A DNA stretch of 64,000 nt from a phage (GCA_014435945.1 GCA_014435945.1_4088.1), one strand, 5' to 3'; shown: positions 22,758-44,015, numbered from the stretch's first letter. Notes: a model not told the origin generated them from the sequence alone. Numbers and translations are program-made.

Positions 22758-22762
22758 TAATT

Positions 22763-23964: not shown

Positions 23965-24615
23965 ATGAATAAAAGAAGTAAGTTCTATCAAGAATATTTC
24001 ACTAAACAGAAACGATTCACAAAAAAATACTTTACATCATCCCACCGACCAGTTGCAAGTTACAAACGTCCTAATACTAACTATCTTACTGGTGGCAAGT
24101 TTAGTGCAAAGTTCGAATTACTTATGCGTGAAAAGAATATCAAGATGCATTACGCAGAGACGAGAAAAAACTCATCAATTATTTGCTCTGATTTTCTTGA
24201 GTACGGTTGCTTAACTTATAAATTCAACGATGTATATTTGTATATTGATGTTGATTGTAACAGTACTCGTATGTTTGAGATTTCAATTCACCCAAATCAC
24301 AACCGTTATATAAACATTAACTTGGTTGATAAAGTACTGATTGGTATATCTAGTACTGATGGTGGTGGATTTGAATTTATTGCTTCAAAATATGATGAAG
24401 ATTTCGTACTTTACCCAGTACTTGATGATGTGAAAGATATTCTCAATTCATTAAAAGGAAGTCAATACAAATTATCTGAAGAACAGCTATTCCAGTACTC
24501 ACTTATTCATGATGATATCGAGATATACTTAGAGTGTGCGAGAATCTTGGAGTATCTTTATAATGAACTAACAACAACTGGTAAAGTGACTGCATTCACA
24601 TTATATAATATGTAA
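23965..24615 (+). CDS. hypothetical basic protein (216 aa), opposite strand, embedded inside the RCC1-like array
   Basis: ORF track; SD GAGG; TATAAT upstream. Confidence 0.5.
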   Translation: MNKRSKFYQEYFTKQKRFTKKYFTSSHRPVASYKRPNTNYLTGGKFSAKFELLMREKNIKMHYAETRKNSSIICSDFLEYGCLTYKFNDVYLYIDVDCNSTRMFEISIHPNHNRYININLVDKVLIGISSTDGGGFEFIASKYDEDFVLYPVLDDVKDILNSLKGSQYKLSEEQLFQYSLIHDDIEIYLECARILEYLYNELTTTGKVTAFTLYNM

Positions 24616-24622
24616 AAGAAAA

Positions 24623-24641
24623 GCCAGTACATAGTACTGGC
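24623..24641. terminator. bidirectional terminator hairpin GCCAGTAC-ata-GTACTGGC
   Basis: Inverted repeat between convergent genes. Confidence 0.55.
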
Positions 24642-25784: not shown

Positions 25785-25856
25785 AATTCCCTCCTTTATT
25801 CATTATACTATATTTAATCAAAAAAGAAAAGCCAGTACTCAAGTACTGGCATTATT
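25785..25856 (-). promoter_or_regulatory. array intergenic cassette: hairpin terminator (25831-25850), T-run, TATAAT, AAGGAGG SD
   Basis: Near-identical sequence recurs between array genes. Confidence 0.65.
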
Positions 25857-27017
25857 TTAAATTGGTGAATCTTCAACAAATATAGTACTAGCAGTACCAC
25901 CAGATACTAGGTTAGTACCACTTGAATATATTTTGTTTCCATCTGTCATATATGTTTTACCATAGCAACTTTGGATTTTAACATCATTGAAATTTAAATC
26001 AGGAGTAATAGACTTAGTGTAAGTTAATACGTTAGTAGTTGAACCTGTACTTAATTGTCCATAGTATGAAGTCGCTGAGTTATTACCAGCAACGTATACA
26101 CCTGTGTCAGTAATAACAAAGTTAGAGTAATATCCGTACCCATATCCTATATCTAATATATTTCCTTGTGGTTGATTTGCCACAACAGTTGTCAATATGT
26201 TGGTTGATGCTGCTGTATTAGTAGCAGTCTGTCCATATGATTGGTCACCACCAGTATACACAGTAACAACAGACGTACTTTTGTTTCTAGCAATACCTTG
26301 AACCATACCATTAACAGTACTTATAAATGCTATAGTACTAACAGTTGCTGGTAATCCATCTGATAATGCGAATACATTATAAAAACTCACGGTTGAAGTA
26401 CTGTTAGTATCACCTTTAACTTCACCTGTGTAATATAATCTACCACTTTCGGCAATAAATGAACACATGTTTATACCTGCAATAATCCTTTTCGGAACCG
26501 CACCACTTGGTATAATTGATTTTACTAATGTAGTAAAACTGTTAGAATAAGAAGCATTGCCAAGCTGTCCTCCTGTGTTATAACCACCACTCCAAATAGT
26601 TCCATTACTCATAAGTATTGAAATGAAGTTATTTCCTAATGATATTTCAGTAATTGTTCCTTGAGAATTAACTTGATTAATAAGAGTTTGCATAGAAGTC
26701 CATGCATTAACAGATGATGTACCCATACACACATTGTATTGTCGCCCTGTGTATTGATATGTACCATCTGATTTGTGAATCATTGTAGCATACTGACCAC
26801 ACCATACATCAATGACATCCGATGCAGTTACTGTCCATGATGTTCTGGTTGTATTGTCTCCTAAACCCAACTGACCACTTGAATTGGCACCACGGGTATA
26901 TAATTTACCATTATTACCCAATACCATAACCCAGTTATACCCTGCAACTAATTTTTTAATGGCAGCAGGGGATGGTGCAATGTTTCCGTAATCAAACATT
27001 CTAACAAAAGGTAACAT
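25857..27017 (-). CDS. RCC1-like repeat protein, array member 15 (MLPFVRMFDYGN)
   Basis: As above; 12-nt gap to upstream gene. Confidence 0.75.
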   Translation of the reverse strand: MLPFVRMFDYGNIAPSPAAIKKLVAGYNWVMVLGNNGKLYTRGANSSGQLGLGDNTTRTSWTVTASDVIDVWCGQYATMIHKSDGTYQYTGRQYNVCMGTSSVNAWTSMQTLINQVNSQGTITEISLGNNFISILMSNGTIWSGGYNTGGQLGNASYSNSFTTLVKSIIPSGAVPKRIIAGINMCSFIAESGRLYYTGEVKGDTNSTSTVSFYNVFALSDGLPATVSTIAFISTVNGMVQGIARNKSTSVVTVYTGGDQSYGQTATNTAASTNILTTVVANQPQGNILDIGYGYGYYSNFVITDTGVYVAGNNSATSYYGQLSTGSTTNVLTYTKSITPDLNFNDVKIQSCYGKTYMTDGNKIYSSGTNLVSGGTASTIFVEDSPI

Positions 27018-27029
27018 AATTATTCTCTC

Positions 27030-28148
27030 CTATATTACTATTTTTTCTTCAGTATATATTAATGCTTTATCTGAGGTAGTGTATCCAGGTAAAGGATACA
27101 ATCTACCTGCAACATAACATATGTCATTTTCTATATAATATGATGAATATGTACTGTCAAAGAATATAGGCTCTATTGAAGTTGGTGCATTGATCATCTT
27201 AGTAAATGCTGGAACCGGTCCAGGTGCAAAACTTGCATTTGTACTGGTAAACCCATAATTATCGGAAACTGCTGACGCATAATAATCGGTTCCATTCTGG
27301 ATTATTATTCTTGCTGCAACCGAACTACTATTATGAACGATTTTAGGAAATGCAAATGTAGCTGCATTATATGTGAATGGTAACGAACAAGAAACTAAAG
27401 TTGCAGTTGCACCAGACACTGATGTTCCATATGTATTGTTGACGTTTCCTCTGGCAAATACACCACTAGCTGTATTAAGCACTACAACAGCAACTGTTGC
27501 TGAATAACCCAAAACCCCTGTTGCAATTTGGGTAAACCCAGTGGAACTAGGTATTTGACTAGCGTTTGGGTTTCCAGAACCATAAAGAACCCCAGAATTA
27601 GTTAATGCCCATACGTTTGCATACATTAATTTGAATGACTTGACATCACTGACTATTGTATTTTTAACAAAAGATGTACTACTACTTGGTGTGCTCATTC
27701 CAAATATATATTGCGTATTCGTACCAATGAACCACAATTCTCCTAAATTTGTTAGCACACCTATACAGTTACGTAACACATTAACTTGAACATCAATTAT
27801 TGTACCAGTTATTGCATTAAAAATCGAACTACAATTAACAAATATATTACTTGTTGGATAACCAAATGCAGTAGTTACACCGCTACACATATACTGACCG
27901 TCTTTGAGTTTTAAAAATGTCCACGTAGGTGAATTGTAAAAGTCATCAACATTTTCATATATCAAAGTCCACTTATCAGCAGATGTAGTAACATCACCAA
28001 ACTGACCATTTGTATTTGGTCCAGTAGCATATAATTTCCCACTTGTTGTTAGTAATAAAACTCCATTACTACCATCCGTGACCAATTTGCGTATTTTCGT
28101 AACTTCTCTTACATTCCCGAACTTAACCATTCTTGCAAAAGGTAACAT
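27030..28148 (-). CDS. RCC1-like repeat protein, array member 14 (MLPFARMVKFGN)
   Basis: As above; 9-nt gap, SD only. Confidence 0.75.
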   Translation of the reverse strand: MLPFARMVKFGNVREVTKIRKLVTDGSNGVLLLTTSGKLYATGPNTNGQFGDVTTSADKWTLIYENVDDFYNSPTWTFLKLKDGQYMCSGVTTAFGYPTSNIFVNCSSIFNAITGTIIDVQVNVLRNCIGVLTNLGELWFIGTNTQYIFGMSTPSSSTSFVKNTIVSDVKSFKLMYANVWALTNSGVLYGSGNPNASQIPSSTGFTQIATGVLGYSATVAVVVLNTASGVFARGNVNNTYGTSVSGATATLVSCSLPFTYNAATFAFPKIVHNSSSVAARIIIQNGTDYYASAVSDNYGFTSTNASFAPGPVPAFTKMINAPTSIEPIFFDSTYSSYYIENDICYVAGRLYPLPGYTTSDKALIYTEEKIVI

Positions 28149-28157
28149 ATTTCCCTC

Positions 28158-29315
28158 CTAATTTATATTCAATTTGATTTCTGTGTAGTTCATCAGTTTT
28201 GGATTATTACCTGGAAAATAAGTTAAAGAATCATCATTAAAAGGCCCACTACCAAATACTTTCCCATCAGAGTTTATAAGAGTTGTATAATTACTTGCAC
28301 TAACAACTGTCTCAATATTACCATCCACTGAACTGAAATCCTGTAATGTAAAGTTTGAACCAGCACCTGGCACAGTTGGGTTGGTGAATCCCATTCTGTT
28401 AGTACTACTGCTATTTGCACCAACACCATAATGAACGACTGAATTGGAAATCCACACACTGACGGTCGCTGTCTGTTCATCTGTTAGAATCTTAAATGTA
28501 CTTACATCATAAGAAAACGGCAATGTAATCTTGCTATTAATTGCACGCTGTTCTGCACTGAATGAATAACCATATCTGTTCGACGATAAACCACGGAAAT
28601 ATAAACCATCACTTTTTGTGTATAACAATTCACCATTTAAACCATTACCGTAGATATTAAGTATAGCAGTATCACCAAGGTTCGTAAATGTAGTCACATC
28701 AGTATTACCACTAATAAACTGATAATTACCACAGAACCACGCTGTATTATCATTCTTAAGAGCCACTATAGTCTCATAAGAACAACTTACAAAATTCCTG
28801 CAATTGGTGTTTATCTTCGTAAATGTTCCTAAACTATTACTTTTGCCTAACCCCAATTGACCACGGTTTCCATATCCAATACCATATAAATCACCATCAG
28901 TGTTTAATGCATATACTGTGTACGAAGCATTATTCCTTCTGGTAAAATCAATCTTCTTGATAGTTCCTAATGCAGAGAACGTAGAACTAACATCAATATA
29001 ATTCAATCCTGAACTACCACCCAGTACTGTAGAGTCGCCAGCAGCAAGATAACGTCCATCAGACATTATTAATAATGTACATCTGGGATGACATATCATA
29101 TCCGATACACCCTGCATTACCATCTGCGGAACTCCCCCACTAATCTCACTAGAACTACCACTACCAAATCTCCAGTTGGTGTTTTGACCATATGCATACA
29201 CGTCACCTGTATTCGTCAATATCATCTGACTAGTACCGAAAGAGTTTATCTTCTTAATCCCAGCAGGTACTGGTGCAATATTCCCGTACTTAACCATTCT
29301 TGCAAAAGGTAACAT
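28158..29315 (-). CDS. RCC1-like repeat protein, array member 13 (MLPFARMVKYGN)
   Basis: As above. Confidence 0.75.
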   Translation of the reverse strand: MLPFARMVKYGNIAPVPAGIKKINSFGTSQMILTNTGDVYAYGQNTNWRFGSGSSSEISGGVPQMVMQGVSDMICHPRCTLLIMSDGRYLAAGDSTVLGGSSGLNYIDVSSTFSALGTIKKIDFTRRNNASYTVYALNTDGDLYGIGYGNRGQLGLGKSNSLGTFTKINTNCRNFVSCSYETIVALKNDNTAWFCGNYQFISGNTDVTTFTNLGDTAILNIYGNGLNGELLYTKSDGLYFRGLSSNRYGYSFSAEQRAINSKITLPFSYDVSTFKILTDEQTATVSVWISNSVVHYGVGANSSSTNRMGFTNPTVPGAGSNFTLQDFSSVDGNIETVVSASNYTTLINSDGKVFGSGPFNDDSLTYFPGNNPKLMNYTEIKLNIN

Positions 29316-29324
29316 ATTTCCCTC

Positions 29325-30500
29325 CTATTCTGGTAAAATCATTTTCTTCATTTTAACTTGTTGTGTACCTGGACTCTGTTCCTGAAACATAGAGCCGTTC
29401 CCACACCAGTACACCTCATTAGTCCCCACTAACGCGTATAACACACCAGAACCACCTTGAACTGAAAATGCATTAACATCTGGTGCAACATCCATATCCT
29501 CATATTGTACCTGGTGGTAATAAGATCTTTCTGATGCAGTAGTAACAGGCCAACCAAGAGGAACACCACTACCACATGTATAAAGTTTACCATTCTGTGT
29601 CATTGCCATTATAAAATAATTCAAACTGTGATTGTTCATCGACCCAGCATCTGGTATAATACCACTAATTGCGGGAGTGGCACTAAATGGACTCATGATA
29701 CTAGTAGTGTCGCCATAACCAATACCTAAAGTATAATCAGTGTTTATACCAGCAGTATATACTCTAATATTACCATTATTAGATGTAAGTACTAAAGTCG
29801 TTAATGTAGTACATGAAATACCAATAACTGTTCCCGATATATCAGTACTTACCGTAAATGTCGAAAGTTTAGAAGAACCTGACCCTAAGTTGTAACTTGC
29901 GTTATTCCCACATCTGTAGTATTGATTATTTTTAACATAATGGAAAGCATCCCCAGCCGTTGTTCCCGCAATTATAGTAACTCCAGTAGCAATCTGAATT
30001 GGCGTTGTTTTTCTACCAGTAACACCCAATGCACCTCCTGTATTACGCCCAATCCCATATAAGTCCCCATTACTTAACAAAATCAATAACGCACCATTTG
30101 ATGCAGTAGTTTCAGTAGCAGCTATATCTACTACTGTAGTAAGTGCTGGTATTGTAGACAATAAAGATGTGATATTAGTCCATCCAGGAACTGGTGATGC
30201 AGATACACCGACATAACCCATTTGACCAGCTAAGTAAAATGCTCCGTCAGTCGTAAGTATAATTGTTGCTGCAAAGAAGCACCAAACATTAGAAACTTTA
30301 TATGGACACTGTACCCACCCATTTTGCACATACGCAGTGCTATTATTTCCTAGCATATAGTTTGCACCATTTCCACGTAGATATAAGTTACCACTATCAA
30401 ATAACATACCCATATGTGATGGAGATGTACTTATCTTCATAACACCTGAAGGTGCTGGAACTCTGTTTCCGTACTTAACCATTCTTGCAAAAGGTAACAT
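29325..30500 (-). CDS. RCC1-like repeat protein, array member 12 (MLPFARMVKYGN)
   Basis: As above; first gene of an apparent 4-gene operon. Confidence 0.75.
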   Translation of the reverse strand: MLPFARMVKYGNRVPAPSGVMKISTSPSHMGMLFDSGNLYLRGNGANYMLGNNSTAYVQNGWVQCPYKVSNVWCFFAATIILTTDGAFYLAGQMGYVGVSASPVPGWTNITSLLSTIPALTTVVDIAATETTASNGALLILLSNGDLYGIGRNTGGALGVTGRKTTPIQIATGVTIIAGTTAGDAFHYVKNNQYYRCGNNASYNLGSGSSKLSTFTVSTDISGTVIGISCTTLTTLVLTSNNGNIRVYTAGINTDYTLGIGYGDTTSIMSPFSATPAISGIIPDAGSMNNHSLNYFIMAMTQNGKLYTCGSGVPLGWPVTTASERSYYHQVQYEDMDVAPDVNAFSVQGGSGVLYALVGTNEVYWCGNGSMFQEQSPGTQQVKMKKMILPE

Positions 30501-30571
30501 ATTTCCCTCCTTTATTCATTATACTATATTTAATACAAATAAGAAAGCCAGTATCAAGTACTGGCCTATAT
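30501..30571 (-). promoter_or_regulatory. array intergenic cassette (hairpin 30546-30564, TATAAT, AAGGAGG)
   Basis: Seen directly. Confidence 0.65.
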
Positions 30572-31741
30572 TTAAACTGGTGAATCTAATATAAATTCTA
30601 AACTACTAATGCCACCATATGTGACATCTGTTCCCGTGCTATATACAAAATTACCATCAGTTATATAAGTTCGGTGATAACTACCTGCCATCTGTGACTT
30701 ACTATAATCAAACCCATCAGGTACGATTGCTTTGGTATATACTAATGCATTAGTAGATGTACCAATACCTAACATACCAGCTTGTGTAGATTTATTGTAA
30801 CCGCAACAATATATACCATCTGTTGTAGCAATAACTTGGTTATAATATGAAGTATTGTTAGCAATGCTTACTACATCACCAGGTGGCATTAGTGATGCTG
30901 TTTGTACCTCAAATGCTCTATAATCGTTGAGAGAACCATCGTTCCCATCTGCTTGTGCACCAAATATTCTTGAACCACCATTTGCGATGATAGTTTTACC
31001 AGTGGGATCAGTGCCTATTGCCATTGCCATTGAAGTACCATTATTCACATAGTATTTTATATTAATTGTATTACTTAAGCTGGTAGGAGCACCATAATAT
31101 ATATTATATAACTTACTTCCTGAACTTGTAACTGCATTGACTCTTCCTGTATAAAATAGCCATCCTTGGTTTGTAACATAACCGTGCATTAAATTACTTG
31201 CAAACAATTTAACAGGTAATTGATTTGCTGCGGTCGGGACAGTACTTTTGACGAATCTACCAGAAACATAGTTAGTTGTTGTCCCATCACCCAACTGACC
31301 ATCCGACCCTACTCCAGTACTCCATATTGTTTGGTCTGATAGTAACACACTTGTAGTCTGATAACTAACGGCTATATCTAATATTGGTAATGTTAATGTA
31401 TTGAATATAGGCATAGCAGATGTCCATATTGATACTCCTGCCCCTTTCATACCAACAGTTGTTGAACTTCCACTGTACCATATTTCATTATTGCTTTTCT
31501 TAACAACTATCGACGTGGTTCCCATCCAAAAATCTTCAACACCAGAAGTACTAAAAGTCCATGTAGTAACAGTATTTTCGTGACCTAAACCCAAAAGACC
31601 ATATGCATTATCACCACGCACATATAAATCACCACTGTTTGTTAAAACAGCAACATTATAGTTGTTAGCAAGTATTTTTTTAATATTTGGTTTAGTAGGT
31701 GCAATATTCCCGTAATCAAACATTCTAACAAAAGGTAACAT
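30572..31741 (-). CDS. RCC1-like repeat protein, array member 11 (MLPFVRMFDYGN); track start 31777 is translated promoter
   Basis: Start set at conserved MLPF codon after AAGGAGG. Confidence 0.75.
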   Translation of the reverse strand: MLPFVRMFDYGNIAPTKPNIKKILANNYNVAVLTNSGDLYVRGDNAYGLLGLGHENTVTTWTFSTSGVEDFWMGTTSIVVKKSNNEIWYSGSSTTVGMKGAGVSIWTSAMPIFNTLTLPILDIAVSYQTTSVLLSDQTIWSTGVGSDGQLGDGTTTNYVSGRFVKSTVPTAANQLPVKLFASNLMHGYVTNQGWLFYTGRVNAVTSSGSKLYNIYYGAPTSLSNTINIKYYVNNGTSMAMAIGTDPTGKTIIANGGSRIFGAQADGNDGSLNDYRAFEVQTASLMPPGDVVSIANNTSYYNQVIATTDGIYCCGYNKSTQAGMLGIGTSTNALVYTKAIVPDGFDYSKSQMAGSYHRTYITDGNFVYSTGTDVTYGGISSLEFILDSPV

Positions 31742-31811
31742 ATTTCCTCCTTTATTCATTATACTATATTTAATCAAAAAGAAAAGCCAGTATCAAGTAC
31801 TGGCATTATTG
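31742..31811 (-). promoter_or_regulatory. array intergenic cassette (hairpin 31786-31804)
   Basis: Seen directly. Confidence 0.65.
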
Positions 31812-33002
31812 TTATAGTTGTCTTGGAGTATCAAGTACATATCTATTTGTACTAGGACCACCATCATCATAAGTTCCGGTTGAATATATATTTTTCATAT
31901 CAGCAGTTAGGAAAGTACGTAACGACCCTCGATATATTTTTATTTTATCATACATAGAATATGTTATTTCTGACGGCAATGGACATGCAGTAAATTTACC
32001 AATGGTAACATTAGAACCAACACCCAATGAACCAGCATAACTACTCGCATTTAAACCTGTTGCATATACACCAGAACTCGTAACTAGTATACTAGATTGT
32101 GCTGGGTATCCAGTATGAATTGAATACAAAGTACCGGGTGGTAAGGTTGTACTATTATTTCCTAATACTGCTCGTGCTGTACTAGACGTAGTGTTATTAC
32201 CCCATGCCCCATTATTGGCGTTCCCACCCACTAGGAACTGACGTGCTCCTGTACTTGGATTCTCCACTAAAGCACTGACTGCACCAATTGTACATACAAC
32301 ATATTGTAATGTTTTTGTATATGTTGTACTTGGCTGATATAAAGTATATTGATTGTATGGAGTCCATGTATCAGTAGTACTTATACCTGATGTACTACCA
32401 CCAATATATAAATTATTTTGTGTATCATAAAACATTACACAGCTATTTGTTGACTGTATTCGTGCAATATCAACATTAGGCGTGACAGCTTTTACAAATG
32501 ATCCATCTGTTATTTGTTGAGTACTACCAGTACCATCAGCGAATTGTCTAGCCCCACTCCAACCAGTACTCCATATTGTATTATTATCCATTAAGAAAGT
32601 AAACCAAGTAGTACCTGCATACATCTGTTTAATTGAAGTACCTGAACTTTGTGTGTACAAATTTTCAATATATTGGTTATAACTTAAAAATGATGTAGTA
32701 CTAGTTTCTAAACCAATATGACCACCATATCCACAATAAAAATAATTTAAGTCCTTATCTTGAACTAACAAAGTTCCTTGTGTCATCCAGCAATCTTTGA
32801 CATTTTCTCTAATTAATGTCCACGACCTTACTGCATTATTATTTCCGCGACCGAACTTCCCATAACTATTATTTCCTCGTGCGTATAGTTGACCGTCAGT
32901 ATAAAGTACAACCACATCAGTATCAGTTGGTATTATTTTCTTAATTAGAAGAGGTTCAGGTGTGATATTCCCATAATCAAACAATCTAACAAAAGGTAAC
33001 AT
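31812..33002 (-). CDS. RCC1-like repeat protein, array member 10 (MLPFVRLFDYGN)
   Basis: As above. Confidence 0.75.
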   Translation of the reverse strand: MLPFVRLFDYGNITPEPLLIKKIIPTDTDVVVLYTDGQLYARGNNSYGKFGRGNNNAVRSWTLIRENVKDCWMTQGTLLVQDKDLNYFYCGYGGHIGLETSTTSFLSYNQYIENLYTQSSGTSIKQMYAGTTWFTFLMDNNTIWSTGWSGARQFADGTGSTQQITDGSFVKAVTPNVDIARIQSTNSCVMFYDTQNNLYIGGSTSGISTTDTWTPYNQYTLYQPSTTYTKTLQYVVCTIGAVSALVENPSTGARQFLVGGNANNGAWGNNTTSSTARAVLGNNSTTLPPGTLYSIHTGYPAQSSILVTSSGVYATGLNASSYAGSLGVGSNVTIGKFTACPLPSEITYSMYDKIKIYRGSLRTFLTADMKNIYSTGTYDDGGPSTNRYVLDTPRQL

Positions 33003-33073
33003 ATTTTCCTCCTTTATTCATTATACTATATTTAACCAAAAAGAAAAGCCAGTGCTCAAGTACTGGAGTAATG
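33003..33073 (-). promoter_or_regulatory. array intergenic cassette (hairpin 33049-33066)
   Basis: Seen directly. Confidence 0.65.
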
Positions 33074-34216
33074 TCAATAAGTATCCCAAGGTAATGGTGT
33101 CTTCCTAAATCCATACCTGGTTGTGCTCGCACCATCACCAGCAATGTATCTACCTATACCACATTGGTATAACTCTGTACTACTACATATAGCACCACCT
33201 ATAGTACCACTACTCCACTGAATTATATTAGAATATGTTATTGGTAAATCACTACATTTAGTATATATCCCAACGGTAGCACCACCACTAATACCACCAA
33301 ACATACTTCGGTTAGCACCAGTGTAATATATACCATCTGGACTCATAAATGCAGAGGTGTAAGTTGTACTGCAATCCACTGGACTTCTTATTGTATTAAG
33401 ATCGCCTGGGTATGTCCTGACACCAAAGGTGTATACATTACCATCAGTTGTAATACCATTACCTAACTGTCCACTGTTTTGTCCACCACATGTAAGCAAC
33501 AATGCAGAACCAGAAACAATTGCAGTAGCATTATACGAAGTACCCATTGCAATAGAAGCACCAGACAATAGTTTTGGAGTAACAATAGCTGTTGTATTAC
33601 CCTGGCCTAATTCACCATTGATATTTCGTCCCCATGCGTATATAGAAGTCGTATCCAATCGACATAGTACTGAACCATAACTAAACGTATATCGCATGTC
33701 ATTTACAGCAGAAGGCAAATTAACCTTAGTTGCAACACTAATAACACCACCAGTAACACCACTGTTTGCGTACATGTTACGACCATATGCATATAAAGAA
33801 CCATCTGAAGTTTTAATATGCATCATACCATCTGTACAATATAATGCATCTATACTCTCCACCGCAACCGGACCCATACTGGTAGTTATATCGGTCCACC
33901 CAAGCGTGGTAGTACTAGAAATTAAGTTATTTCCGGCGTATAGTATTCTATTATTATTAGTAACTACAACTGTATATCTGGCAGTAACACCAATTAATCG
34001 AACATCAGTATATATCTTAGACCACGCACCTAATGAATTGGTGTTTGCATCCAAAAAGCCCAACTGCCCATCTGTATTGTATCCAATACCCCATACATCA
34101 CCTGCACTGTCCAATAACACTTCATGTGAAAATCCAATCTTAAAATCTTTTATTGTAGGAACTACCGGAACTGGTGCAATATTCCCGTACTTAACCATTC
34201 TTGCAAAAGGTAACAT
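33074..34216 (-). CDS. RCC1-like repeat protein, array member 9 (MLPFARMVKYGN)
   Basis: As above. Confidence 0.75.
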   Translation of the reverse strand: MLPFARMVKYGNIAPVPVVPTIKDFKIGFSHEVLLDSAGDVWGIGYNTDGQLGFLDANTNSLGAWSKIYTDVRLIGVTARYTVVVTNNNRILYAGNNLISSTTTLGWTDITTSMGPVAVESIDALYCTDGMMHIKTSDGSLYAYGRNMYANSGVTGGVISVATKVNLPSAVNDMRYTFSYGSVLCRLDTTSIYAWGRNINGELGQGNTTAIVTPKLLSGASIAMGTSYNATAIVSGSALLLTCGGQNSGQLGNGITTDGNVYTFGVRTYPGDLNTIRSPVDCSTTYTSAFMSPDGIYYTGANRSMFGGISGGATVGIYTKCSDLPITYSNIIQWSSGTIGGAICSSTELYQCGIGRYIAGDGASTTRYGFRKTPLPWDTY

Positions 34217-34281
34217 AATTCCCTCCTTTATTCATTATACTATATTTAATACAAATAAGAATGCCAGTATCAAGTACTGGC
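34217..34281 (-). promoter_or_regulatory. array intergenic cassette; hairpin 34263-34281 overlaps last codons of upstream gene
   Basis: Seen directly. Confidence 0.6.
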
Positions 34282-35466: not shown

Positions 35467-35537
35467 ATTTCCCTCCTTTATTCATTATACTATATTTAAT
35501 TCAAAAAGAAAAGCCAGTATCAAGTACTGGCATTATG
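35467..35537 (-). promoter_or_regulatory. array intergenic cassette (hairpin 35513-35531)
   Basis: Seen directly. Confidence 0.65.
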
Positions 35538-36647
35538 TTATTTTGGTAAATCAATTTTAGTAAAGACTGCAACATCCTCGCTTGCCCCTGGGATGGCGTA
35601 ATAAGAACCAGTACTATATACATCTCCGTCTTTTGTTAATATTGATGTCAAACCATCACTAAAAAGAACATCCCTAATTGCACTAACTTCAACGGGTAAT
35701 TGTAAATTTGTAGCACTATATATAGCACCAGTTTGAGAATTGTTTAATCCCAAACCACGGTTCGCCCCAACACCCTTCTGATATGTACTAGTAATTACCA
35801 TTTGTGTCGCAGTATTTAAGGCAGGTGAATTCGTCATAAACAACGGAGAACTATTCGGCAAAGTACTTACAGGAACTGCACGGAATGTAGTTGTATCTGA
35901 ACTAAGAAAGTTTGGCGTTTGACCACATACGAAATATGATGTACCATTATAGTAATTAAATGCATTACCACCTATAGCTGCATCTATTACTCCAGTACTA
36001 CGTAATCCCCACGTGTTAATTTGTGTTCGGTTCCCCGTGCCATGCTGACCCCTGTCATTCCACCCAGAACTATATAACTTATTATCTAATGTAATATACA
36101 TACTGTCATTTGCATTCGTCATTACTTTACGCACATTAGTAGCACATTGAGTTAATGTGTAAATTGATGATGAACCAATACCTAAAGCACCACGATATCC
36201 ATTAGCCCCTGCACCATAGAGTACTGAACTAGTGCTAAGTACAAATATTAAACCATACGAACATACTATATCAGCAATTTCATTTACCGATAGTACACTC
36301 GTAAACCACGCAGTCCTATCAACTAATACAGTACTGTAAGAAGTCCCAGTAGAAGACGAAAACCAATAAGTCTCACCAGCAGTCCATATAGTATTGTCAC
36401 TCTTAATAACAACAACTGTACGATCACCAGCAAAAAAATTAGTAACTCCTGTACTCACTAATCTCCATGAAGATACAGTGTTGGTATTACCATTACCAGA
36501 TTCACCACCTTGATTTCTTCCTATGTAATATAAATCATGTGAATCAGTCAATAAGAATTGACCCTGTGTGGAAGCACCAACTTTAATTATATTTTTAGGA
36601 CCAGGTGCAACATTCCCATACTCCAACATCCTTACAAAAGGTAACAT
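35538..36647 (-). CDS. RCC1-like repeat protein, array member 7 (MLPFVRMLEYGN)
   Basis: As above. Confidence 0.75.
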   Translation of the reverse strand: MLPFVRMLEYGNVAPGPKNIIKVGASTQGQFLLTDSHDLYYIGRNQGGESGNGNTNTVSSWRLVSTGVTNFFAGDRTVVVIKSDNTIWTAGETYWFSSSTGTSYSTVLVDRTAWFTSVLSVNEIADIVCSYGLIFVLSTSSVLYGAGANGYRGALGIGSSSIYTLTQCATNVRKVMTNANDSMYITLDNKLYSSGWNDRGQHGTGNRTQINTWGLRSTGVIDAAIGGNAFNYYNGTSYFVCGQTPNFLSSDTTTFRAVPVSTLPNSSPLFMTNSPALNTATQMVITSTYQKGVGANRGLGLNNSQTGAIYSATNLQLPVEVSAIRDVLFSDGLTSILTKDGDVYSTGSYYAIPGASEDVAVFTKIDLPK

Positions 36648-36657
36648 ATTTCTCTCC

Positions 36658-37788
36658 TTAATTTAATAATGCCCCTGGCAAATCCACTTTGACGAATTGT
36701 GCATATGCTGAGGAATTTTGATCAAAGTTTGGTCCCAATCCATAAAATGAGCTAATGCCGTCTTCATTTGTGTATATGATATAAACGTTCTTTACATCAT
36801 TTCCGCATATAAATCGAATGTCTTTCGTTTGTGTTCCCGCTGGAACATTACGAAGGTTCACAACGCCATTACTTGCATTGTTATCAGCCGCCGCAATTGG
36901 TAATTGATTTTGACCATATTGACCACGCATATTTTTTGCATCTAAACCAAACACAGTATCTGATACCGCACCAACTTTCAAAAATGAACCAAAACTATTA
37001 TTGAATGACTTTGGAAATGTACCACTATAAACACTTCTCCCATCTGATAATACCGCTGAACTGAATTTCCCGCTATTCGATATGGCAAATTCATTGTAAG
37101 GAAGTGTACCCATTTTGGTATATACAGAATATGAATTAGTGGAAGTATTATCAATAATCTTATTACCATTATATCCAATACCATACTGGTATCCGTCTGC
37201 ATCTTGAACTATACACAAAGGACCACTTGGGGTTTGTGTCAACGAAACAACACGTTCAACTTGTATATCACCAAATGTATTTCTTCGCCATGTTCTATCT
37301 ATTATAGTACTAGTATTACCCAAAGATAATGCCACACTATATAATAGATTGTTTTCAGTAAAAATGGCAACATAATATGCGTGGTTAATAACTTGCTTCA
37401 TCCCAGCATCAATAACTTCCTGTGGAATATGATCAGTAACATCCAACCAATCAAGGTTAGATGATGCAATATCTGGAGTACTGAATTTGTCAAATCTAGT
37501 TGAGCCACAAACTAGCACTCTATCATCATTTGTCAAAGCCACTGTGCTAGTCTGCATATTAGAACTGAATGATTTAACATTACTAATGTTAGACTTGTAC
37601 CAACCCTTATCAGCAGCACCCACCGTGAATCCGGTTCCCATTGATCCACTTGTACTTGTACCATAAGCCCACATCTCACCACTATATGTTAGTGCCATAC
37701 AGTGGCTTCCATTTGCTTGGAAATCCTTTATACCAGTGGGAGCAACCACTGTATTCCCATAATCAAACATTCTAACAAAAGGTAACAT
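36658..37788 (-). CDS. RCC1-like repeat protein, array member 6 (MLPFVRMFDYGN); start at conserved MLPF codon
   Basis: Track start 37803 adds MEILV. Confidence 0.7.
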   Translation of the reverse strand: MLPFVRMFDYGNTVVAPTGIKDFQANGSHCMALTYSGEMWAYGTSTSGSMGTGFTVGAADKGWYKSNISNVKSFSSNMQTSTVALTNDDRVLVCGSTRFDKFSTPDIASSNLDWLDVTDHIPQEVIDAGMKQVINHAYYVAIFTENNLLYSVALSLGNTSTIIDRTWRRNTFGDIQVERVVSLTQTPSGPLCIVQDADGYQYGIGYNGNKIIDNTSTNSYSVYTKMGTLPYNEFAISNSGKFSSAVLSDGRSVYSGTFPKSFNNSFGSFLKVGAVSDTVFGLDAKNMRGQYGQNQLPIAAADNNASNGVVNLRNVPAGTQTKDIRFICGNDVKNVYIIYTNEDGISSFYGLGPNFDQNSSAYAQFVKVDLPGALLN

Positions 37789-37803
37789 AACTAAAATCTC
37801 CAT

Positions 37804-37863
37804 ATAATAATTATAATGTATTTACAAAAAAATACCAGTACGTATTTCAGTACTGGTATAATG
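37804..37863 (-). promoter_or_regulatory. array intergenic cassette variant (hairpin ACCAGTAC..GTACTGGT, TATAAT, GGAG)
   Basis: Seen directly. Confidence 0.55.
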
Positions 37864-39045
37864 TTATGGTAAAATAATAGCTTGTAACGAACTCATACCC
37901 AATGTTGGGACACTCGCCTGTGGTGCTGGTGAATTCAATTTTGGTGATGAAACCGCATATGACATTCCTGAACCCAAATCTGGATCAAAAACTACAGCAC
38001 AATAATTCCCACTATATATAAGTCCATTCTTGTATCCTTGTGCACTTTGAATGCATTTCGTGAACGTACCAATATCTGTAGTGGCATTTATTAAGTTCCT
38101 CCCACGATAACCGCAGGTGTATATGAAATTATCATCGCCTATGTACATACTAGAATCCCCAGAAGAACTACATAGATACGACATATAAGCACGCATGTTT
38201 TTAGGAGCAACTGACAATGTACCTGCATAGAATTTATTATTCGAACCCGTAATATCACCATCACCCAATGCACCAAAACTTCCCCAGCCAGTACCGTAAT
38301 ATCTCTTATCACTCAAAAATATAATACAGTTGTTATTACACATCTTGATTTGATATATCAATGAAGGATCAACCCCAGGGAATGATTCAGTGAATGTTAG
38401 AACAGCCGGATCAGTACTAGCATTACATTGATGATATGTATTAGTACCAGCGGACAAGATTGTTCCATTAGCTAACAGAATTCTCGCAGTACCAGTACCA
38501 GCAGTACAAGCAACTGCACTTCCTGCACTTCCGGTGTATATTTGTCTGAAAGTAAAGAAACCAACAGTTTTACTTCCCTGCCCACTCCAACCAGTATTAT
38601 CAACTCCACACGCCCATACTGAACCATCTTGCATGATCATCATTACACCAAAGCGTTCTATTGAAATATAAACAATCTTCGTTGTATCAACTGCACTAAA
38701 TCTAGAAGTTATATCAGTCCATACCTTAACACTTACCGCCGTCGCACTGGAAGTAGGATCTTCACCAGCTATCATTATCCTCCCATTGTTAGTAAGATAC
38801 ATTGTCTGACTATAACCAGTACTACAAAACTTAACACTATTAGTCTCTGGAACTTTTAACCACTCGTTGTAACGTGTTACGTTAGTGTTATTACCTAACT
38901 GATAATAGTTATTCATCCCAGATACATATAACACACCATCCTTTATTAAACTATAAGTCGCACTATAGTCACTACAGGTATAACGTGTACCCACAGGTCG
39001 CTCAACGACGTTCCCATAATCAAACATTCTAACAAAAGGTAACAT
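37864..39045 (-). CDS. RCC1-like repeat protein, array member 5 (MLPFVRMFDYGN)
   Basis: As above. Confidence 0.75.
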   Translation of the reverse strand: MLPFVRMFDYGNVVERPVGTRYTCSDYSATYSLIKDGVLYVSGMNNYYQLGNNTNVTRYNEWLKVPETNSVKFCSTGYSQTMYLTNNGRIMIAGEDPTSSATAVSVKVWTDITSRFSAVDTTKIVYISIERFGVMMIMQDGSVWACGVDNTGWSGQGSKTVGFFTFRQIYTGSAGSAVACTAGTGTARILLANGTILSAGTNTYHQCNASTDPAVLTFTESFPGVDPSLIYQIKMCNNNCIIFLSDKRYYGTGWGSFGALGDGDITGSNNKFYAGTLSVAPKNMRAYMSYLCSSSGDSSMYIGDDNFIYTCGYRGRNLINATTDIGTFTKCIQSAQGYKNGLIYSGNYCAVVFDPDLGSGMSYAVSSPKLNSPAPQASVPTLGMSSLQAIILP

Positions 39046-39118
39046 AATAAAATCTCCGTAATTAAATTATATAGTATTTACAAAAAATACCAGTACATAT
39101 TTCAGTACTGACCTATTA
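39046..39118 (-). promoter_or_regulatory. array intergenic cassette variant
   Basis: Seen directly. Confidence 0.55.
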
Positions 39119-40240
39119 TTAAAAGGGCAACGGTAACTCAGTAAAAGTACTTACGTCCGGTAAACCATACATTGAATTAGCATCACCACAGTAATACCAC
39201 TTCGTAGAATCATGTACCACCGATAAACGCTGTGCACATAACACTTCCTGTATGTCATTAAACACCATCGGGACTAACTCATATGTATCCGCAAATGAAG
39301 ATACACCACCACTCGCATGAAAAGTATTCGTCCCAGCATAAAATAACTGATTAGTGTTCTTACCCACAGCAAATGTCATCAATATCCCATCATTCGCCCA
39401 TAAAGAAGAAAACTTATCAACACTACCAGAAAGCTCTGTGTAAGTACTCGTAATGGCACTCGCAGCCGCCGCATTACCCATCTGTTTATTCAAGTTCTGT
39501 CCAGCAATAAAATATCTCGTGCGTGCACTAGAATCAGTATATAATAACCCAGTGTTCGTAGTCATCATTCCAATGTCCTTAATCGTCATACCAGTCTGTG
39601 AATAACTTAGATACGAAGTTAAATTAACATTATTACCCAACGAACCGTTATCACTCATACCACAACGATGTAATATACCACTTGTATCAACGTAGATTGT
39701 ACTAACTAAACTCGTATACAACTCTTGTACATTATTCGCAATAAACACAGCAGTCGCCTTATTACTAACCCCACCAAATGATAGGTTATTATCAAATCCC
39801 TTAGCGTATAATTGATTATTAGTAGTCAATAATCCAATCGTGAAATAAGACATTTTCATATCCCTTACTGTACTCAAATCTACTGCCCCAAATTGGTGCG
39901 TAACATCTGTCCATGTGAAAATCTGTGCACTACCAACACCACCCGTTTCAAACCATTTGTCACCACAGTACAATATGCGATTACCCTTAGTAAAGATAAC
40001 TGTTACCAATCCACTACCACACGCAAACTTTACATCACTTCTAACCTTCGTCCAATTAAGTACATAGGTAGTGGTGTTATTACCTATACCTAACTTGCCA
40101 TAACGGTTATAACCACGCACCCACAAATCACCACTCTTAGTAATTAATAGTAATGCGTCTCCTGTACTTATTATTCGAAATCCCGAACTAGGATCAGGTG
40201 TAATATTTCCATAATCAAACAATCTAACAAAAGGTAACAT
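39119..40240 (-). CDS. RCC1-like repeat protein, array member 4 (MLPFVRLFDYGN)
   Basis: As above. Confidence 0.75.
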   Translation of the reverse strand: MLPFVRLFDYGNITPDPSSGFRIISTGDALLLITKSGDLWVRGYNRYGKLGIGNNTTTYVLNWTKVRSDVKFACGSGLVTVIFTKGNRILYCGDKWFETGGVGSAQIFTWTDVTHQFGAVDLSTVRDMKMSYFTIGLLTTNNQLYAKGFDNNLSFGGVSNKATAVFIANNVQELYTSLVSTIYVDTSGILHRCGMSDNGSLGNNVNLTSYLSYSQTGMTIKDIGMMTTNTGLLYTDSSARTRYFIAGQNLNKQMGNAAAASAITSTYTELSGSVDKFSSLWANDGILMTFAVGKNTNQLFYAGTNTFHASGGVSSFADTYELVPMVFNDIQEVLCAQRLSVVHDSTKWYYCGDANSMYGLPDVSTFTELPLPF

Positions 40241-40249
40241 GATTTTCTC

Positions 40250-41443
40250 CTATGATTGCCATAACTGCGTTGGCATTAATGTTAATGTTTTAATTACGGA
40301 AGTACCATCCGGTAAGTTACCACCTGAACCGTTAAAGCCCCCACATGCATATAATTTATAATCTTTAGTTATAATTATTGTTCTGGACCAGTCTTTGGAT
40401 GCCATAAGAACATTGTCATATCCACCCTGTATCGCACTTAAAGAAAACGCCCCCCACGAAGTAATTACTGTTGTATTTCCCGTCCCTTCTTGACCATATG
40501 TATTGATGCCTGCACTCCTGACATATGATGGGTATTGAGCCATAGGTGCACCAATTGTTGAGTTACCCATATTACTAGGACACAGGAAACCATCACTAAT
40601 ATTCACTATAACCTGTGAATTCTGAACTGTAGTTAATTGGTTTGTAGTTGAAGTAGTACCATTCCCAGCTTGTCCAGAATTGTTTCTACCACTCCAGTAC
40701 ACCCTACCGGCAGTGAACCACCAGGTAACATCATAAGTAGCACTTATATAATCGACGTTGGATCGTATTAATTTATTAGTAAAAACGTATGAGCTAGTCC
40801 CACCACCACTTTCACCAAAGTTATCCTTACCACAAAACCATGCTTCTTTATTTGTTTTGAGATAGTGCGTACCCTGTAATGAACACGCCAATTGAGAAAC
40901 TTCACCCATACCAGTAACAACTGTTAGTACTGGAATGGAATTTTGGTTACCTGTTCCACATTCGGCATTTGCATTTTTACCACAAACAACTACTCTTCCA
41001 TCGTGTAGTAATATTCTAGTACTTTCACCTATATGTACACTCTTGATTAAATTAGCGTGTACATTTATTTTGTTAAATGCGGCAGTAACATCAGTCCATG
41101 TTCTAAAATAACCATTAACTGGAGTTGCATCTCCATAATCGGGGAATGCTACAGTATTCCCTGTGAAATATATTCTATTATCCAAGTCAATCATCAATGA
41201 GCCATGAACGCCTAACCAAAAGGCTGCACAGTGCGTTGCCAGTACTGTAAAAGTAGAAACTGTCGATTGATTCCCTAGACCTAATTGGCTCAAGTTATTA
41301 CCACCATAACCGTATAGTGTATTCGTGGGCTTATGTAGATACATAGCATTAGTATAATGTTGCTGTAAAACATCAGTGAACTCAACTGGATCAGGAATAG
41401 GCAGTTTATTCCCGTATTTAACCATTCTTGCAAAAGGTAACAT
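40250..41443 (-). CDS. RCC1-like repeat protein, array member 3 (MLPFARMVKYGN)
   Basis: As above. Confidence 0.75.
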   Translation of the reverse strand: MLPFARMVKYGNKLPIPDPVEFTDVLQQHYTNAMYLHKPTNTLYGYGGNNLSQLGLGNQSTVSTFTVLATHCAAFWLGVHGSLMIDLDNRIYFTGNTVAFPDYGDATPVNGYFRTWTDVTAAFNKINVHANLIKSVHIGESTRILLHDGRVVVCGKNANAECGTGNQNSIPVLTVVTGMGEVSQLACSLQGTHYLKTNKEAWFCGKDNFGESGGGTSSYVFTNKLIRSNVDYISATYDVTWWFTAGRVYWSGRNNSGQAGNGTTSTTNQLTTVQNSQVIVNISDGFLCPSNMGNSTIGAPMAQYPSYVRSAGINTYGQEGTGNTTVITSWGAFSLSAIQGGYDNVLMASKDWSRTIIITKDYKLYACGGFNGSGGNLPDGTSVIKTLTLMPTQLWQS

Positions 41444-41513
41444 ATTTCCCTCCTTTATTCATTATACTATATTTAATCAAAAATAAATGCCAGTACACAG
41501 TACTGGCATAATA
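41444..41513 (-). promoter_or_regulatory. array intergenic cassette (hairpin 41489-41507)
   Basis: Seen directly. Confidence 0.65.
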
Positions 41514-42692
41514 TTATCGGTTAAATTTAAAATCTGTTATGTGTGTCCATGTATGATTTAATGGTGTACTCATTGGTGTAAAGCCAGCAGGGTCTGACAA
41601 AGCTGTACCACGTGCGTACATAAATTGATTGCCAGTACAATCCATTATAGCATAAGAACGTTTTGCTGTGCCACATTTGAACCCAACTGCACTACTTGGG
41701 GTCGGTAATACTTCAAATGTAGGTGCATTTGAACTACCACCCCCATCTTTTGTTCCAGCTATGTACAGAACTCCATTAGTATCAATGATTAAGTTAGTCC
41801 AATATACTTGTTCTCGTCCAGCAAAAAAATATGTTAAATCACCTGGTACAAATGGTAACGTTCCTTTATATATTGTGGTATTAACATCCACTGGTGCACC
41901 AGCTACACCCCATGAACTCATATAGTTTCTCCCACTTGCGTAGAATGTAGTTCCTTTACCGTAAAGTATTAATGTTGCTAGACTTGTTCGCATTGCATTA
42001 TATTCAAACTCAGGATCATCAGTAGCGTCCTTAAAAATCTGTGTCCATGTTGTTATATTGCCAGTAGTTGTAACACCCATTTGATAATAATAATTATCAC
42101 CAGTAGCATAGAATTCTTTAGGGCCAGTTTGTACAATTGCATTCCTATTAGTTAACCAAAAATCTAATGTATTAGTCTTGATCTTGGTTGGTGTGTAATT
42201 CGCCACGGTATTTCCTTTTCCGAAATAACCATTAGCGTTATTTCCATGACCCCATAAATCACCATTAGTTGTGCGTAGGAATAATGTACCAATATTGAAT
42301 CCAACTTTTTCTATAGTACTTATGTCAATACCAACAGTCGTGTACTTCGTTGTAAAATCTTGAAAAGTACTCCAATAATTAGATGAACCATTAAACATGG
42401 TTTGTTTACCAGTGTACTTCACTTTATTATCTTTAGTGATAAGTAATGTCCCCCACACTGACGCGAACATCAACTTAACATTTTCCATAACAAAGTATGG
42501 CTTACCGTATGCTGACGCGGTAGAGTTCAAACCTAATAGTTGTCCATTATTACTACAACCCCATACTTCGCCGTTATCCAAAAGCATCAACATAGTAGGT
42601 TTGCCAGATGATACATCCAAAAAGAAATCTTTTGGTGTTGGTACACCAGGTGTAATATTTCCATAATCAAACATTCTAACAAAAGGTAACAT
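41514..42692 (-). CDS. RCC1-like repeat protein, array member 2 (MLPFVRMFDYGN)
   Basis: As above. Confidence 0.75.
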   Translation of the reverse strand: MLPFVRMFDYGNITPGVPTPKDFFLDVSSGKPTMLMLLDNGEVWGCSNNGQLLGLNSTASAYGKPYFVMENVKLMFASVWGTLLITKDNKVKYTGKQTMFNGSSNYWSTFQDFTTKYTTVGIDISTIEKVGFNIGTLFLRTTNGDLWGHGNNANGYFGKGNTVANYTPTKIKTNTLDFWLTNRNAIVQTGPKEFYATGDNYYYQMGVTTTGNITTWTQIFKDATDDPEFEYNAMRTSLATLILYGKGTTFYASGRNYMSSWGVAGAPVDVNTTIYKGTLPFVPGDLTYFFAGREQVYWTNLIIDTNGVLYIAGTKDGGGSSNAPTFEVLPTPSSAVGFKCGTAKRSYAIMDCTGNQFMYARGTALSDPAGFTPMSTPLNHTWTHITDFKFNR

Positions 42693-42764
42693 ATTTCCCT
42701 CCTTTATTCATTATACTATATTTAATCAAAAATAAAAGCCAGTACTCTGTACTGGCATATTAAT
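42693..42764 (-). promoter_or_regulatory. array intergenic cassette (hairpin 42738-42756)
   Basis: Seen directly. Confidence 0.65.
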
Positions 42765-43913: not shown

Positions 43914-44015
43914 ATTTCCTCCTTTATTCATTATATCATATTTACCCCATAAACAAAACCCTTGACATCCTTTCAGTACTGGTGTACTATAGAAGGAATA
44001 TAAGGAGAACTGTAC
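43914..44015. promoter_or_regulatory. divergent promoter region: -10/SD cassette for the minus array and TTGACA-N17-TACTAT plus AAGGAG for the + strand mini-gene array
   Basis: cccttgacatcctttcagtactggtgtactat on + strand; TATAATGAATAAAGGAGG on - strand. Confidence 0.55.

Follow-up and report, generated by a model that had tools for sequence, protein, structure and literature searches.

Mobile regulatory cassettes known as PeSLs and PmSLs have been described in T4-type phages (Arbiol et al. 2010, PMC2839356; Comeau et al. 2014, PMC4122927, which also mentions the T4 internal-protein locus). Crossovers at PeSLs were mapped between the -10 element and the Shine-Dalgarno (SD) sequence or ATG and in the loop, the modules are transcriptionally insulated, and neighboring elements can recombine to form DNA circles (mini-circles); recombination in T4 needs <50 bp of homology. 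Here, we describe a repeated element in a 64,000-nucleotide stretch of phage DNA (GCA_014435945.1; "the window" denotes this whole stretch), where it separates tandem minus-strand genes for RCC1-like proteins. The repeat is probably a composite junction module of a hypervariable virion-protein gene array, uniting a terminator, a late-type promoter, SD and ATG, a coding tag, and a crossover site.

The closest known system is the PeSL/PmSL terminator-promoter cassette, from which the array junction differs in promoter, cargo, and coding extension. In both systems, a stem-loop terminator, promoter, SD, and start codon follow one another in the same order, and a hyperplastic region contains many near-identical copies. 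Insertions, deletions, replacements, and displacements beside the elements distinguish close relatives, and degraded or half elements ("1/2 PeSLs") occur at some sites, comparable to a half cassette in phage BF17. However, the array cassette lacks a -35 element or Mot box, and its promoter, TAAATA-N3-TATAAT, is related to the late box. Its cargo consists of 1.1-kb genes for virion-associated beta-propeller proteins, whereas PeSL cargo consists of small ORFans. In addition, the conserved block of the array runs 36 nt into the coding sequence as a tag that is itself a crossover site. The idea of a mobile regulatory cassette is extended here from the small early ORFans of T4-type phages to a virion-protein array in 350-kb Rak2-like jumbo phages, with a crossover substrate that can include a coding tag.

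In T4, the locus for the internal proteins is polymorphic. It encodes dissimilar, dispensable, virion-packaged proteins with a short common N-terminal peptide, has conserved 5' flanks, and is shuffled between phages; the targeting peptide is cut by the prohead protease after Glu. Repoila et al. in 1994 and Mullaney and Black in 1996 are said to have described this locus with its capsid targeting sequence. The array proteins are likewise dissimilar apart from a short N-terminal peptide in common, and they have homologs in the virion; their genes also have conserved 5' flanks and are shuffled among relatives. They differ in that the tag offers no Glu for an (L/I)-x-E prohead-protease site and in that the cargo consists of 25- to 45-kDa beta-propeller or glycine-rich domains (one weakly lectin-like), at 12 to 17 genes per genome.

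We found no earlier description of the junction element, the array shuffling, or the tag in the literature. Papers on Asteriusvirus mention only multiple or differing "chromosome condensation" genes. Junction shuffling would explain why these "chromosome condensation/RCC1" genes are the main reported difference between near-identical Asteriusvirus isolates developed for therapy.

Structure of the array junctions

Megablast matched the array region to Asteriusvirus-like jumbo coliphages (121Q, PBECO4, phAPEC6, BF17, Turkey3, and others), with matching stretches 85 to 99% identical and no single record covering more than 36% of the 23-kb array region. As judged from these matches, the source is an Asteriusvirus-like (121Q/PBECO4) jumbo coliphage, that is, a Rak2-like phage of 350 kb and only distant kin of T4. 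The minus strand of the window carries 17 RCC1-like paralogs, 16 in tandem (24648..43913) and one apart, with protein identities of 14 to 35% (mean, 22%). PF00415 (RCC1) scored over the Pfam cut-off in four of the five array proteins tested, and a PF25390 match was below it. The AlphaFold2 model of the gene I product has an all-beta repeat fold (predicted local distance difference test [pLDDT] score, 84.8; predicted template modeling [pTM] score, 0.86), consistent with a beta-propeller. Three mechanically called open reading frame (ORF) starts were over-extended and were corrected to 31741 (from 31777), 37788 (from 37803), and 43913 (from 43931).

An earlier note on positions 25785-42764, made from the sequence alone, had reported nearly the same minus-strand element in eight gaps and a variant in two more. 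The eight gaps were borne out as main cassettes of 53 to 72 nt. Both variant gaps were confirmed as well, that at 39046-39118 exactly and the other at 37789-37863 rather than 37804-37863, the ORF start having been corrected. The array thus has 10 composite junctions, 8 main and 2 variant, and 5 junctions of 9 to 12 nt with an SD alone. It reaches slightly past the positions of the note at both ends, taking in genes P and A, a terminal terminator, a leader promoter, and paralog Q (Table 1).

On the minus strand, the composite junctions read in the order of a GCCAGTAC-type hairpin, a T-run, TAAATA-N3-TATAAT, SD, and ATG. The exact 15-mer TAAATATAGTATAAT has eight matches, all on the minus strand within array gaps. 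Twelve matches to TAAATA-N3-TATAAY were found in the 64 kb, each 16 to 21 nt 5' of an array start codon; there were none elsewhere in the window and none in a 49-kb structural/replication region of phAPEC6. The hairpin pattern CCAGTAC-N2-8-GTACTGG had six exact matches, compared to none in 100 shuffles. The SD and start codon read AAAGGAGGGAAAT-ATG in the main cassettes, and the variants have GGAG as the SD.

In silico, a hairpin and T-run precede the promoter box by 12 to 14 nt in 10 of 10 internal cassettes. Nine of the 11 window hairpins have folding energies of -10 to -14.7 kcal/mol (z, -3.4 to -4.9); the hairpin of cassette D>E is weak, and that of cassette I>J is degraded. Because the latter folds at -5.9 kcal/mol with a z of 0, the terminator of cassette I>J is probably leaky. 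Stems are 7 to 10 bp long with 4 or 5 G-C pairs, loops have 3 to 8 nt, and the U-run follows directly, as in intrinsic terminators. The hairpin is present in 57 of 69 unique cassettes, where three stem pairs show compensatory double changes and the loop has 18 variants; stem changes are also compensatory across genera. The annotation of phage G17 has ARNOLD terminators at matching positions. These features agree with the proposal in the earlier note of a terminator-promoter-SD module, although terminator activity itself is a prediction. Both promoter hexamers are invariant in 75 of 102 genes and the N3 spacer varies; spacing is constant, with 12 to 14 nt from hairpin to box and 16 to 23 nt from box to ATG.

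The stem differs from that of an ordinary intrinsic terminator in that its sequence, with an AGTAC core, is conserved across genera beyond what a terminator needs. In phAPEC6, CAGTACT or CCAGTACTG-like palindromes resembling this core occur upstream of gp244, gp226c, gp228c, and the major capsid protein gene gp225c, between the late boxes and the SDs of these structural genes. Because of that position, the AGTAC core may be recognized by something, beyond its part in terminator formation. Among the cassettes of BF17, the window, and L001, an asymmetric hairpin exists in both orientations (e.g., window 31786-31804 compared to BF17), as GCCAGTAC-TTG-ATACTGGC and as the reverse complement GCCAGTAT-CAA-GTACTGGC, which suggests occasional inversion or template switching inside the palindrome.

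Predicted promoter class and transcription units

Thirteen sites on the + strand of the window match TTGACA-N16-18-TATAAT at 11 or more of 12 positions, and several of them have a TG extension. No such near-consensus sigma-70 promoter lies in the array, and a sigma-70 scan within the array gave 88 hits against 97 expected from shuffles, i.e., no excess. At 16 to 18 nt from the -10 hexamer, the cassettes match TTGACA at three of six positions at most, and they have no TGCTT (Mot) box. The statement that the junctions have TATAAT but not TTGACA, unlike the early promoters of the + strand, therefore held. The idea that went with it, of a promoter class different from the early one, gains from the TAAATA core, which is that of the phage late box, and from the presence of homologous products in virions.

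Relatives of this phage have three predicted promoter classes, including a T4-like late class (ATAAATA). A gp55-like late sigma factor is annotated in the relatives only (phAPEC6 gp237c and CBB_244), outside this window. The capsid, scaffold, portal-region, and baseplate genes of phAPEC6 have NATAAATA 20 to 45 nt before the ATG. The canonical late box, TATAAATA, occurs only twice in the window, at 9622-9629 and 10864-10871 (+), directly preceding 9662..10045 and 10893..12404, which encode homologs of the virion proteins 121Q_199 and 121Q_201. One of the two boxes reads TATAAATATAGT, compared to ATTAAATATAGT in the cassette, with the stretch TAAATATAGT in common. Late boxes of the T4 family are 8 bp long, lie about one helical turn ahead of the start site, and are gp55 dependent; they have no -35 element, are A/T-rich downstream, and vary at -13/-12 (PMC2988020). 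The array box has the same TAAATA core, also without a -35 element and with an A/T-rich segment just downstream, 25 to 35 nt before the ATG. It differs in having AT, TG, or GG at -13/-12 in every copy, never TA, and in having a second invariant hexamer, TATAAT, after 3 nt. When genera are compared, TAAATA does not vary, but the second hexamer is degenerate in GAP32 and Serratia phage BF. Because the TAAATA core is kept, there is no -35 element, the downstream segment is A/T-rich, and the products are virion proteins, we favor the prediction that the array promoter is a variant of the late type.

Three points weigh against this assignment. The A at -12 of canonical late boxes is found in 0 of 75 copies of the array box, which could indicate that another sigma factor is used or that the promoter is weak by design. 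The perfect TATAAT may instead belong to a -10-only promoter of the sigma-70 family. Finally, we found no Asteriusvirus transcriptome in the literature. A distinct sigma specificity or a dual promoter is a real alternative, if clearly the lesser one.

The rival explanation that survives best takes TATAAT as the -10 element of a -35-less promoter of the sigma-70 family, read in the middle phase either by host sigma-70, with the T-rich tract upstream as an aid, or by a phage RpoD-like sigma factor, with TAAATA as only a spacer or discriminator. TATAAT is invariant in the cassettes of Asteriusvirus and of Salmonella phage Munch, an RpoD-like sigma factor is encoded by these phages, and the missing -12 A also fits. 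Confinement of the motif to tagged genes, and its absence from the 49 kb of structural/replication genes, suggests a separate regulon. However, a start ~7 nt after TATAAT would give a leader of only ~11 nt beginning at the SD. GAP32 and Serratia phage BF keep TAAATA, whereas the second hexamer becomes GATATT, TATATA, or TAAAAT. The junctions lack the TGAAACG -35 element that marks the second predicted promoter class of CBB and GAP32, and the products are virion proteins. We regard this explanation as doubtful but worth holding in view. Promoters of the Chimallivirus (Goslar/phiKZ) type were also considered and were rejected, since the window matches Asteriusvirus, which is Rak2-like and uses host RNA polymerase with phage sigma factors.

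According to the mechanism that we propose, the AGTAC-core hairpin and U-run would end the transcript of the upstream gene. About 13 nt farther on, host RNA polymerase directed by the phage gp55-like sigma factor would recognize the late-type promoter, which may have an added -10 function of the sigma-70 type. The strong SD and ATG would then lead into 12 codons for a flexible N-terminal tag (MLPF-x-RM-xx-YGN) outside the beta-propeller. Where hairpin and promoter are absent, genes would be linked by the SD alone and co-transcribed. The five SD-only junctions had no hairpin and no promoter box in a scan of the window, and probably join genes C-D, F-G, and L-M-N-O in co-transcribed units. These correspond to the two two-gene operons and the four-gene operon that had been foreseen, and they reduce the 17 genes to 12 predicted transcription units.

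The GGTAAATATGATATAAT box of the leader promoter also heads the arrays of relatives, of Munch, and of L017, a 109-kb metagenomic contig (IMGVR_UViG_3300007747_000009) in which six MIPF-tagged genes lie behind this one leader promoter. L017 and L012 were the only two informative contigs in a pattern scan of IMG/VR; the other hits had no tagged ORF of at least 120 amino acids and were rejected as probable chance matches. The L017 array and parts of the Munch array have almost no internal cassettes and are mostly or fully operonic. Since these arrays do without it, the internal terminator-promoter is dispensable, a further point against the proposed mechanism, and the distribution suggests that internal cassettes spread secondarily in Asteriusvirus. 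A single long message from the leader promoter, with the hairpins as processing or 3'-stabilizing elements and the internal boxes as inactive passengers, would suit these operonic arrays. It would also suit the moderate stability of the hairpins (-10 to -15 kcal/mol), two of which are weak or degraded in the window. We consider this unlikely: each hairpin has a U-run after it, both hexamers are invariant across dozens of copies while spacer and flanks drift, and the spacings on either side of the box are held.

Exchange of genes at the junctions

We compared the array of the window with those of G17, Turkey3, BF17, vB_Ec-M-J, fEgEco12, and 121Q, grouping proteins at ≥60% identity; phage CMSTMSU was left out because its array is fragmented by apparent frameshifts. 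The seven phages have 12 to 17 array genes each, drawn from 34 types, and the orders and neighborhoods differ. With a space for a junction of >20 nt and a hyphen for an SD-only junction, the window reads A B C-D E F-G H I J K L-M-N-O P Q, BF17 reads Y-A X C-E F-G I J S R V T W-P Q, and fEgEco12 reads A R D E C-G X I J S R V W-P Q. Shared array genes are 89 to 99.7% identical (~95 to 99.7% in the four closest relatives). All 44 homology-block ends in the array were located between -51 and +83 nt relative to a start codon, a stretch amounting to ~11% of the array, and in the seven arrays none of the 44 fell inside a gene body. The comparison of related phage genomes, which the earlier note had suggested as a check, thus revealed gain, loss, and reordering of cassettes in six relatives with breakpoints at the junctions, in line with its picture of recombination-ready cassettes. 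Block ends tend to fall in shared flanks whatever mechanism moved the genes, however, and the breakpoint statistic alone is no proof of a crossover site.

More specific evidence of recombination comes from a deletion and from tag swaps. The C-E junction of BF17 is identical to the C-D junction of the window; therefore, gene D and the next cassette were lost by crossover in the first ~18 nt of shared coding sequence. The tag variant of a gene type can differ from phage to phage (types A, G, J, R, S, and T), as can the junction ahead of the gene, which is a full cassette in some phages and SD only in others (types P, E, D, G, and A). The BF17 half cassette, tagttatacctcgttaaaattaaatgagtactggcatttatttttgatTAAATATAG, has the 3' hairpin arm only, with the breakpoint inside the hairpin. 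Because SD-only junctions also exchange partners (C-D, C-E, and C-G), the main crossover substrate appears to be the SD with the coding tag, to which the hairpin-promoter would supply further homology.

The conserved block continues 36 nt into each gene and encodes MLPF[A/V]RM..YGN. The 5' coding stretch ATGTTACCWTTY has 17 matches, compared to 0.15 expected. We tested codon use in 33 gene types from the seven phages, with gene bodies as the baseline. TTA is used at codon 2 in 33 of 33 gene types, against a baseline frequency of 0.48; CCT is used at codon 3 in 31 of 33, against 0.28; and AGA accounts for 30 of the 32 Arg codons at position 6, against 0.40. Synonymous sites are thus nearly frozen, and conservation is therefore at the nucleotide level and not at the protein level alone. 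Since the junction is near-identical ahead of genes of ~22% identity, its ~50 to 110 nt would serve as a portable crossover site for phage homologous recombination; RecA-like (UvsX-type) general recombination proteins are encoded by these phages. Whole genes could be deleted, inserted, replaced, and reordered between co-infecting relatives with their expression signals kept, and the same exchanges would homogenize the junctions within a lineage (concerted evolution).

Other Rak2-like genera have corresponding junctions. The hairpins of Salmonella phage Munch contain the AGTAC core, show compensatory changes in the stem, and are followed by a T-run, TAAATA-N3-TATAAT, SD, and MIPF[A/T]RIL.YGN. 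GAP32 has GTAAATA and MLPF[S/A]RI..YG[N/D], and in Serratia phage BF, five neighboring genes encode MLPFPIIS. When compared without their first 14 residues, Munch paralogs match Asteriusvirus types better than they match each other (M542-E, 370 versus 97 bits; M550-B, 253 versus 91 bits; M548-I, 197 versus 54 bits); the paralog lineages are therefore older than the genera. Tags and junctions, in turn, are uniform within each genome lineage and differ between genera. Old paralogs with lineage-uniform junctions are what repeated exchange or conversion between junctions would be expected to leave. The uniformity of the tag may also owe something to co-evolution with a common docking partner. Tag conservation could even reflect such co-evolution rather than gene conversion, which counts against the crossover interpretation.

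Tandem duplication has been proposed as a route by which these genomes expanded (PMC7247149), and regulatory elements and a functional tag would be under selection anyway. The junctions might then be ordinary regulatory sequence left by duplication and held by purifying selection, with no role in recombination and with array differences due to unrelated indels. We think this improbable, somewhat more so than a single long message. An identity of ~22% makes the duplications ancient, and several paralog lineages predate the genus split, yet junctions and tags are uniform per genome. The frozen synonymous sites also argue against it, as do the tags and junction types swapped between orthologous genes and the lack of any intragenic breakpoint among the 44 block ends. 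An integron-like system with the hairpins as sites of a dedicated recombinase is very improbable. In its favor, the palindromic AGTAC core is conserved across genera, BF17 has its half-hairpin junction, both loop orientations exist, and the PeSL authors also speculated on a stem-loop-binding helper protein. Against it, hairpin-less SD-only junctions change partners too, the deletion was mapped to the tag sequence, and the annotations of six relatives show neither an integrase nor a recombinase within ~15 kb of the arrays. RecA-like proteins are present in these phages, and the T4 system needs little homology.

Tagged virion proteins and map of the locus

Published proteomics by mass spectrometry detected eight phAPEC6 array proteins in virions. 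All eight are tagged and are encoded behind these junctions, and a homolog, GAP32_001, was also detected in virions. The RCC1 name is the sole basis for the common annotation "DNA condensation protein"; the evidence here favors interchangeable binding modules associated with virions. A role for the RCC1-like proteins as tail "whiskers" was rejected, since CBB has whiskers and no homolog.

Tag residues M1, L2, P3, F4, G11, and N12 are invariant among the paralogs, and Glu is absent from the first 12 residues in 101 of 102 genes. In the gene I model, residues 1 to 20 lie outside the propeller, and residues 1 to 10 have a pLDDT of ~50. The tag also heads a Kelch propeller (type Y; E = 1e-26), Gly_rich_2 proteins (Munch544 above the cut-off, BF gp377 and gp379 weakly), and a 245-amino-acid type without a family match. 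It is also found on a protein annotated as a GAP32 virion protein, which has a weak lectin-like (Laminin_G_3) match below the Pfam cut-off. We rejected the tag as a closing ("velcro") strand of the propeller, given that residues 1 to 20 are unstructured in the model and that the tag is also on proteins that are not RCC1-like. On the simplest reading, the tag would be a portable signal for joining the virion.

We tentatively suggest, at rather less than even confidence, that junction, promoter, and 12-residue MLPF...YGN tag form a plug-and-play system. The tag would act as a virion-incorporation signal that loads interchangeable ligand-binding modules (RCC1 and Kelch propellers, glycine-rich domains, and possibly lectin-like domains) onto or into Rak2-like particles. 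Recombination would give each strain 12 to 17 cargoes from a large pool, and the array would be a larger, late-expressed counterpart of the T4 internal-protein locus. If so, roles in host range or counter-defense are possible. Candidate tools would be the compact module of terminator, promoter, and ribosome-binding site and the 12-residue peptide, for targeting foreign proteins to jumbo-phage virions.

Table 1. Features of the array in window coordinates; cassettes are named by the genes that they separate, and hairpins, boxes, and operons are predictions
Feature	Coordinates	Strand	Details	Support
Leader promoter of array	43914..43960	-	GGGGTAAATATGATATAAT at 43930-43944, SD, ATG of gene A, no hairpin	
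Gene A	42765..43913	-	RCC1-like paralog (MLPFVRMFDYGN...), first of array	
Main cassette A>B	42693..42764	-	Hairpin 42738-42756 (-12.4 kcal/mol, z -3.7), T-run, box 42710-42724, SD	
Gene B	41514..42692	-	RCC1-like paralog	Pfam RCC1 repeats
Main cassette B>C	41444..41513	-	Hairpin 41487-41509 (-14.7 kcal/mol, z -4.4), box 41461-41475, SD	
Genes C and D	39119..41443	-	C, 40250..41443; D, 39119..40240; 9-nt SD-only junction 40241-40249; predicted two-gene operon	
Variant cassette D>E	39046..39118	-	Weak hairpin 39089-39112 (-8.1 kcal/mol, z -1.7), box TAAATACTATATAAT 39066-39080, SD GGAG	
Gene E	37864..39045	-	RCC1-like paralog; cross-genus ortholog Munch542, 50% identity	Pfam
Variant cassette E>F	37789..37863	-	Hairpin 37832-37859 (-14.5 kcal/mol, z -4.9), box TAAATACATTATAAT 37810-37824, SD	
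Genes F and G	35538..37788	-	F, 36658..37788; G, 35538..36647; 10-nt SD-only junction 36648-36657; predicted two-gene operon	
Main cassette G>H	35467..35537	-	Hairpin 35513-35531, box 35484-35498, SD	
Gene H	34270..35466	-	RCC1-like paralog	Pfam
Main cassette H>I	34217..34284	-	Hairpin 34260-34284 (-13.9 kcal/mol, z -4.2) overlapping gene H stop codon, box 34234-34248, SD	
Gene I	33074..34216	-	RCC1-like paralog	AlphaFold2 model
Main cassette I>J	33003..33073	-	Degraded hairpin 33049-33066 (-5.9 kcal/mol, z 0), box 33020-33034, SD	
Gene J	31812..33002	-	RCC1-like paralog	
Main cassette J>K	31742..31811	-	Hairpin 31786-31804, box 31758-31772, SD; full 70 nt after start correction	
Gene K	30572..31741	-	RCC1-like paralog, start corrected to 31741	
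Main cassette K>L	30501..30571	-	Hairpin 30545-30567, box 30518-30532, SD	
Genes L, M, N, and O	25857..30500	-	L, 29325..30500; M, 28158..29315; N, 27030..28148; O, 25857..27017; SD-only junctions of 9, 9, and 12 nt; predicted four-gene operon	
Main cassette O>P	25785..25856	-	Hairpin 25831-25850 (-13.2 kcal/mol, z -4.3), box 25802-25816, SD	
Gene P	24648..25784	-	Last of tandem run	Pfam
Terminal terminator	24600..24641	-	Hairpin 24623-24641 with T-run, then decayed promoter box TACATATTATATAAT 24600-24614	
17th paralog, Q	22735..23918	-	Gene 22763..23887; own box TAAATAAAGTATAAC 23904-23918; hairpin 22735-22755 common with converging + strand genes	

An intact + strand ORF of 216 amino acids (23965-24615), without a Pfam match, breaks the array between P and Q. 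It is also present in fEgEco12, BF17, and Turkey3, and its 3' end overlaps the decayed promoter box. We considered whether the 760-nt spacer 23888-24647 is a decayed paralog and rejected this, the best tblastn match having an E value of 0.08 and the intact ORF lying inside. In phAPEC6, gp551 and gp001 flank the start of the record; both encode 380 amino acids with the same first 14 residues behind identical 85-nt upstream cassettes, reflecting either a recent duplication or a terminal-repeat/assembly effect.

This genome has two separate terminator-promoter cassette families, the array type and an early PeSL-like type. Elements of the early type are located at 6457-6491 and 10832-10864 (+) and at 12411-12436 (-), with a hairpin (A)GGTTGAC-TTCG-GTCAACC(TT), whose stem contains the -35 sequence TTGAC, followed by TATAAT or TATACT. 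The gene at 10893..12404 has a sigma-70-like promoter and a hairpin just upstream in addition to its late box, and may be under dual early and late control. Beyond the array, back-to-back + strand ORFs of ~60 to 75 amino acids occupy 44016-45045 and onward, behind a TTGACA-N17-TACTAT site at 43962-43990. Because relatives annotate differing numbers of them, these small ORFs may be a second copy-number-variable tandem family.

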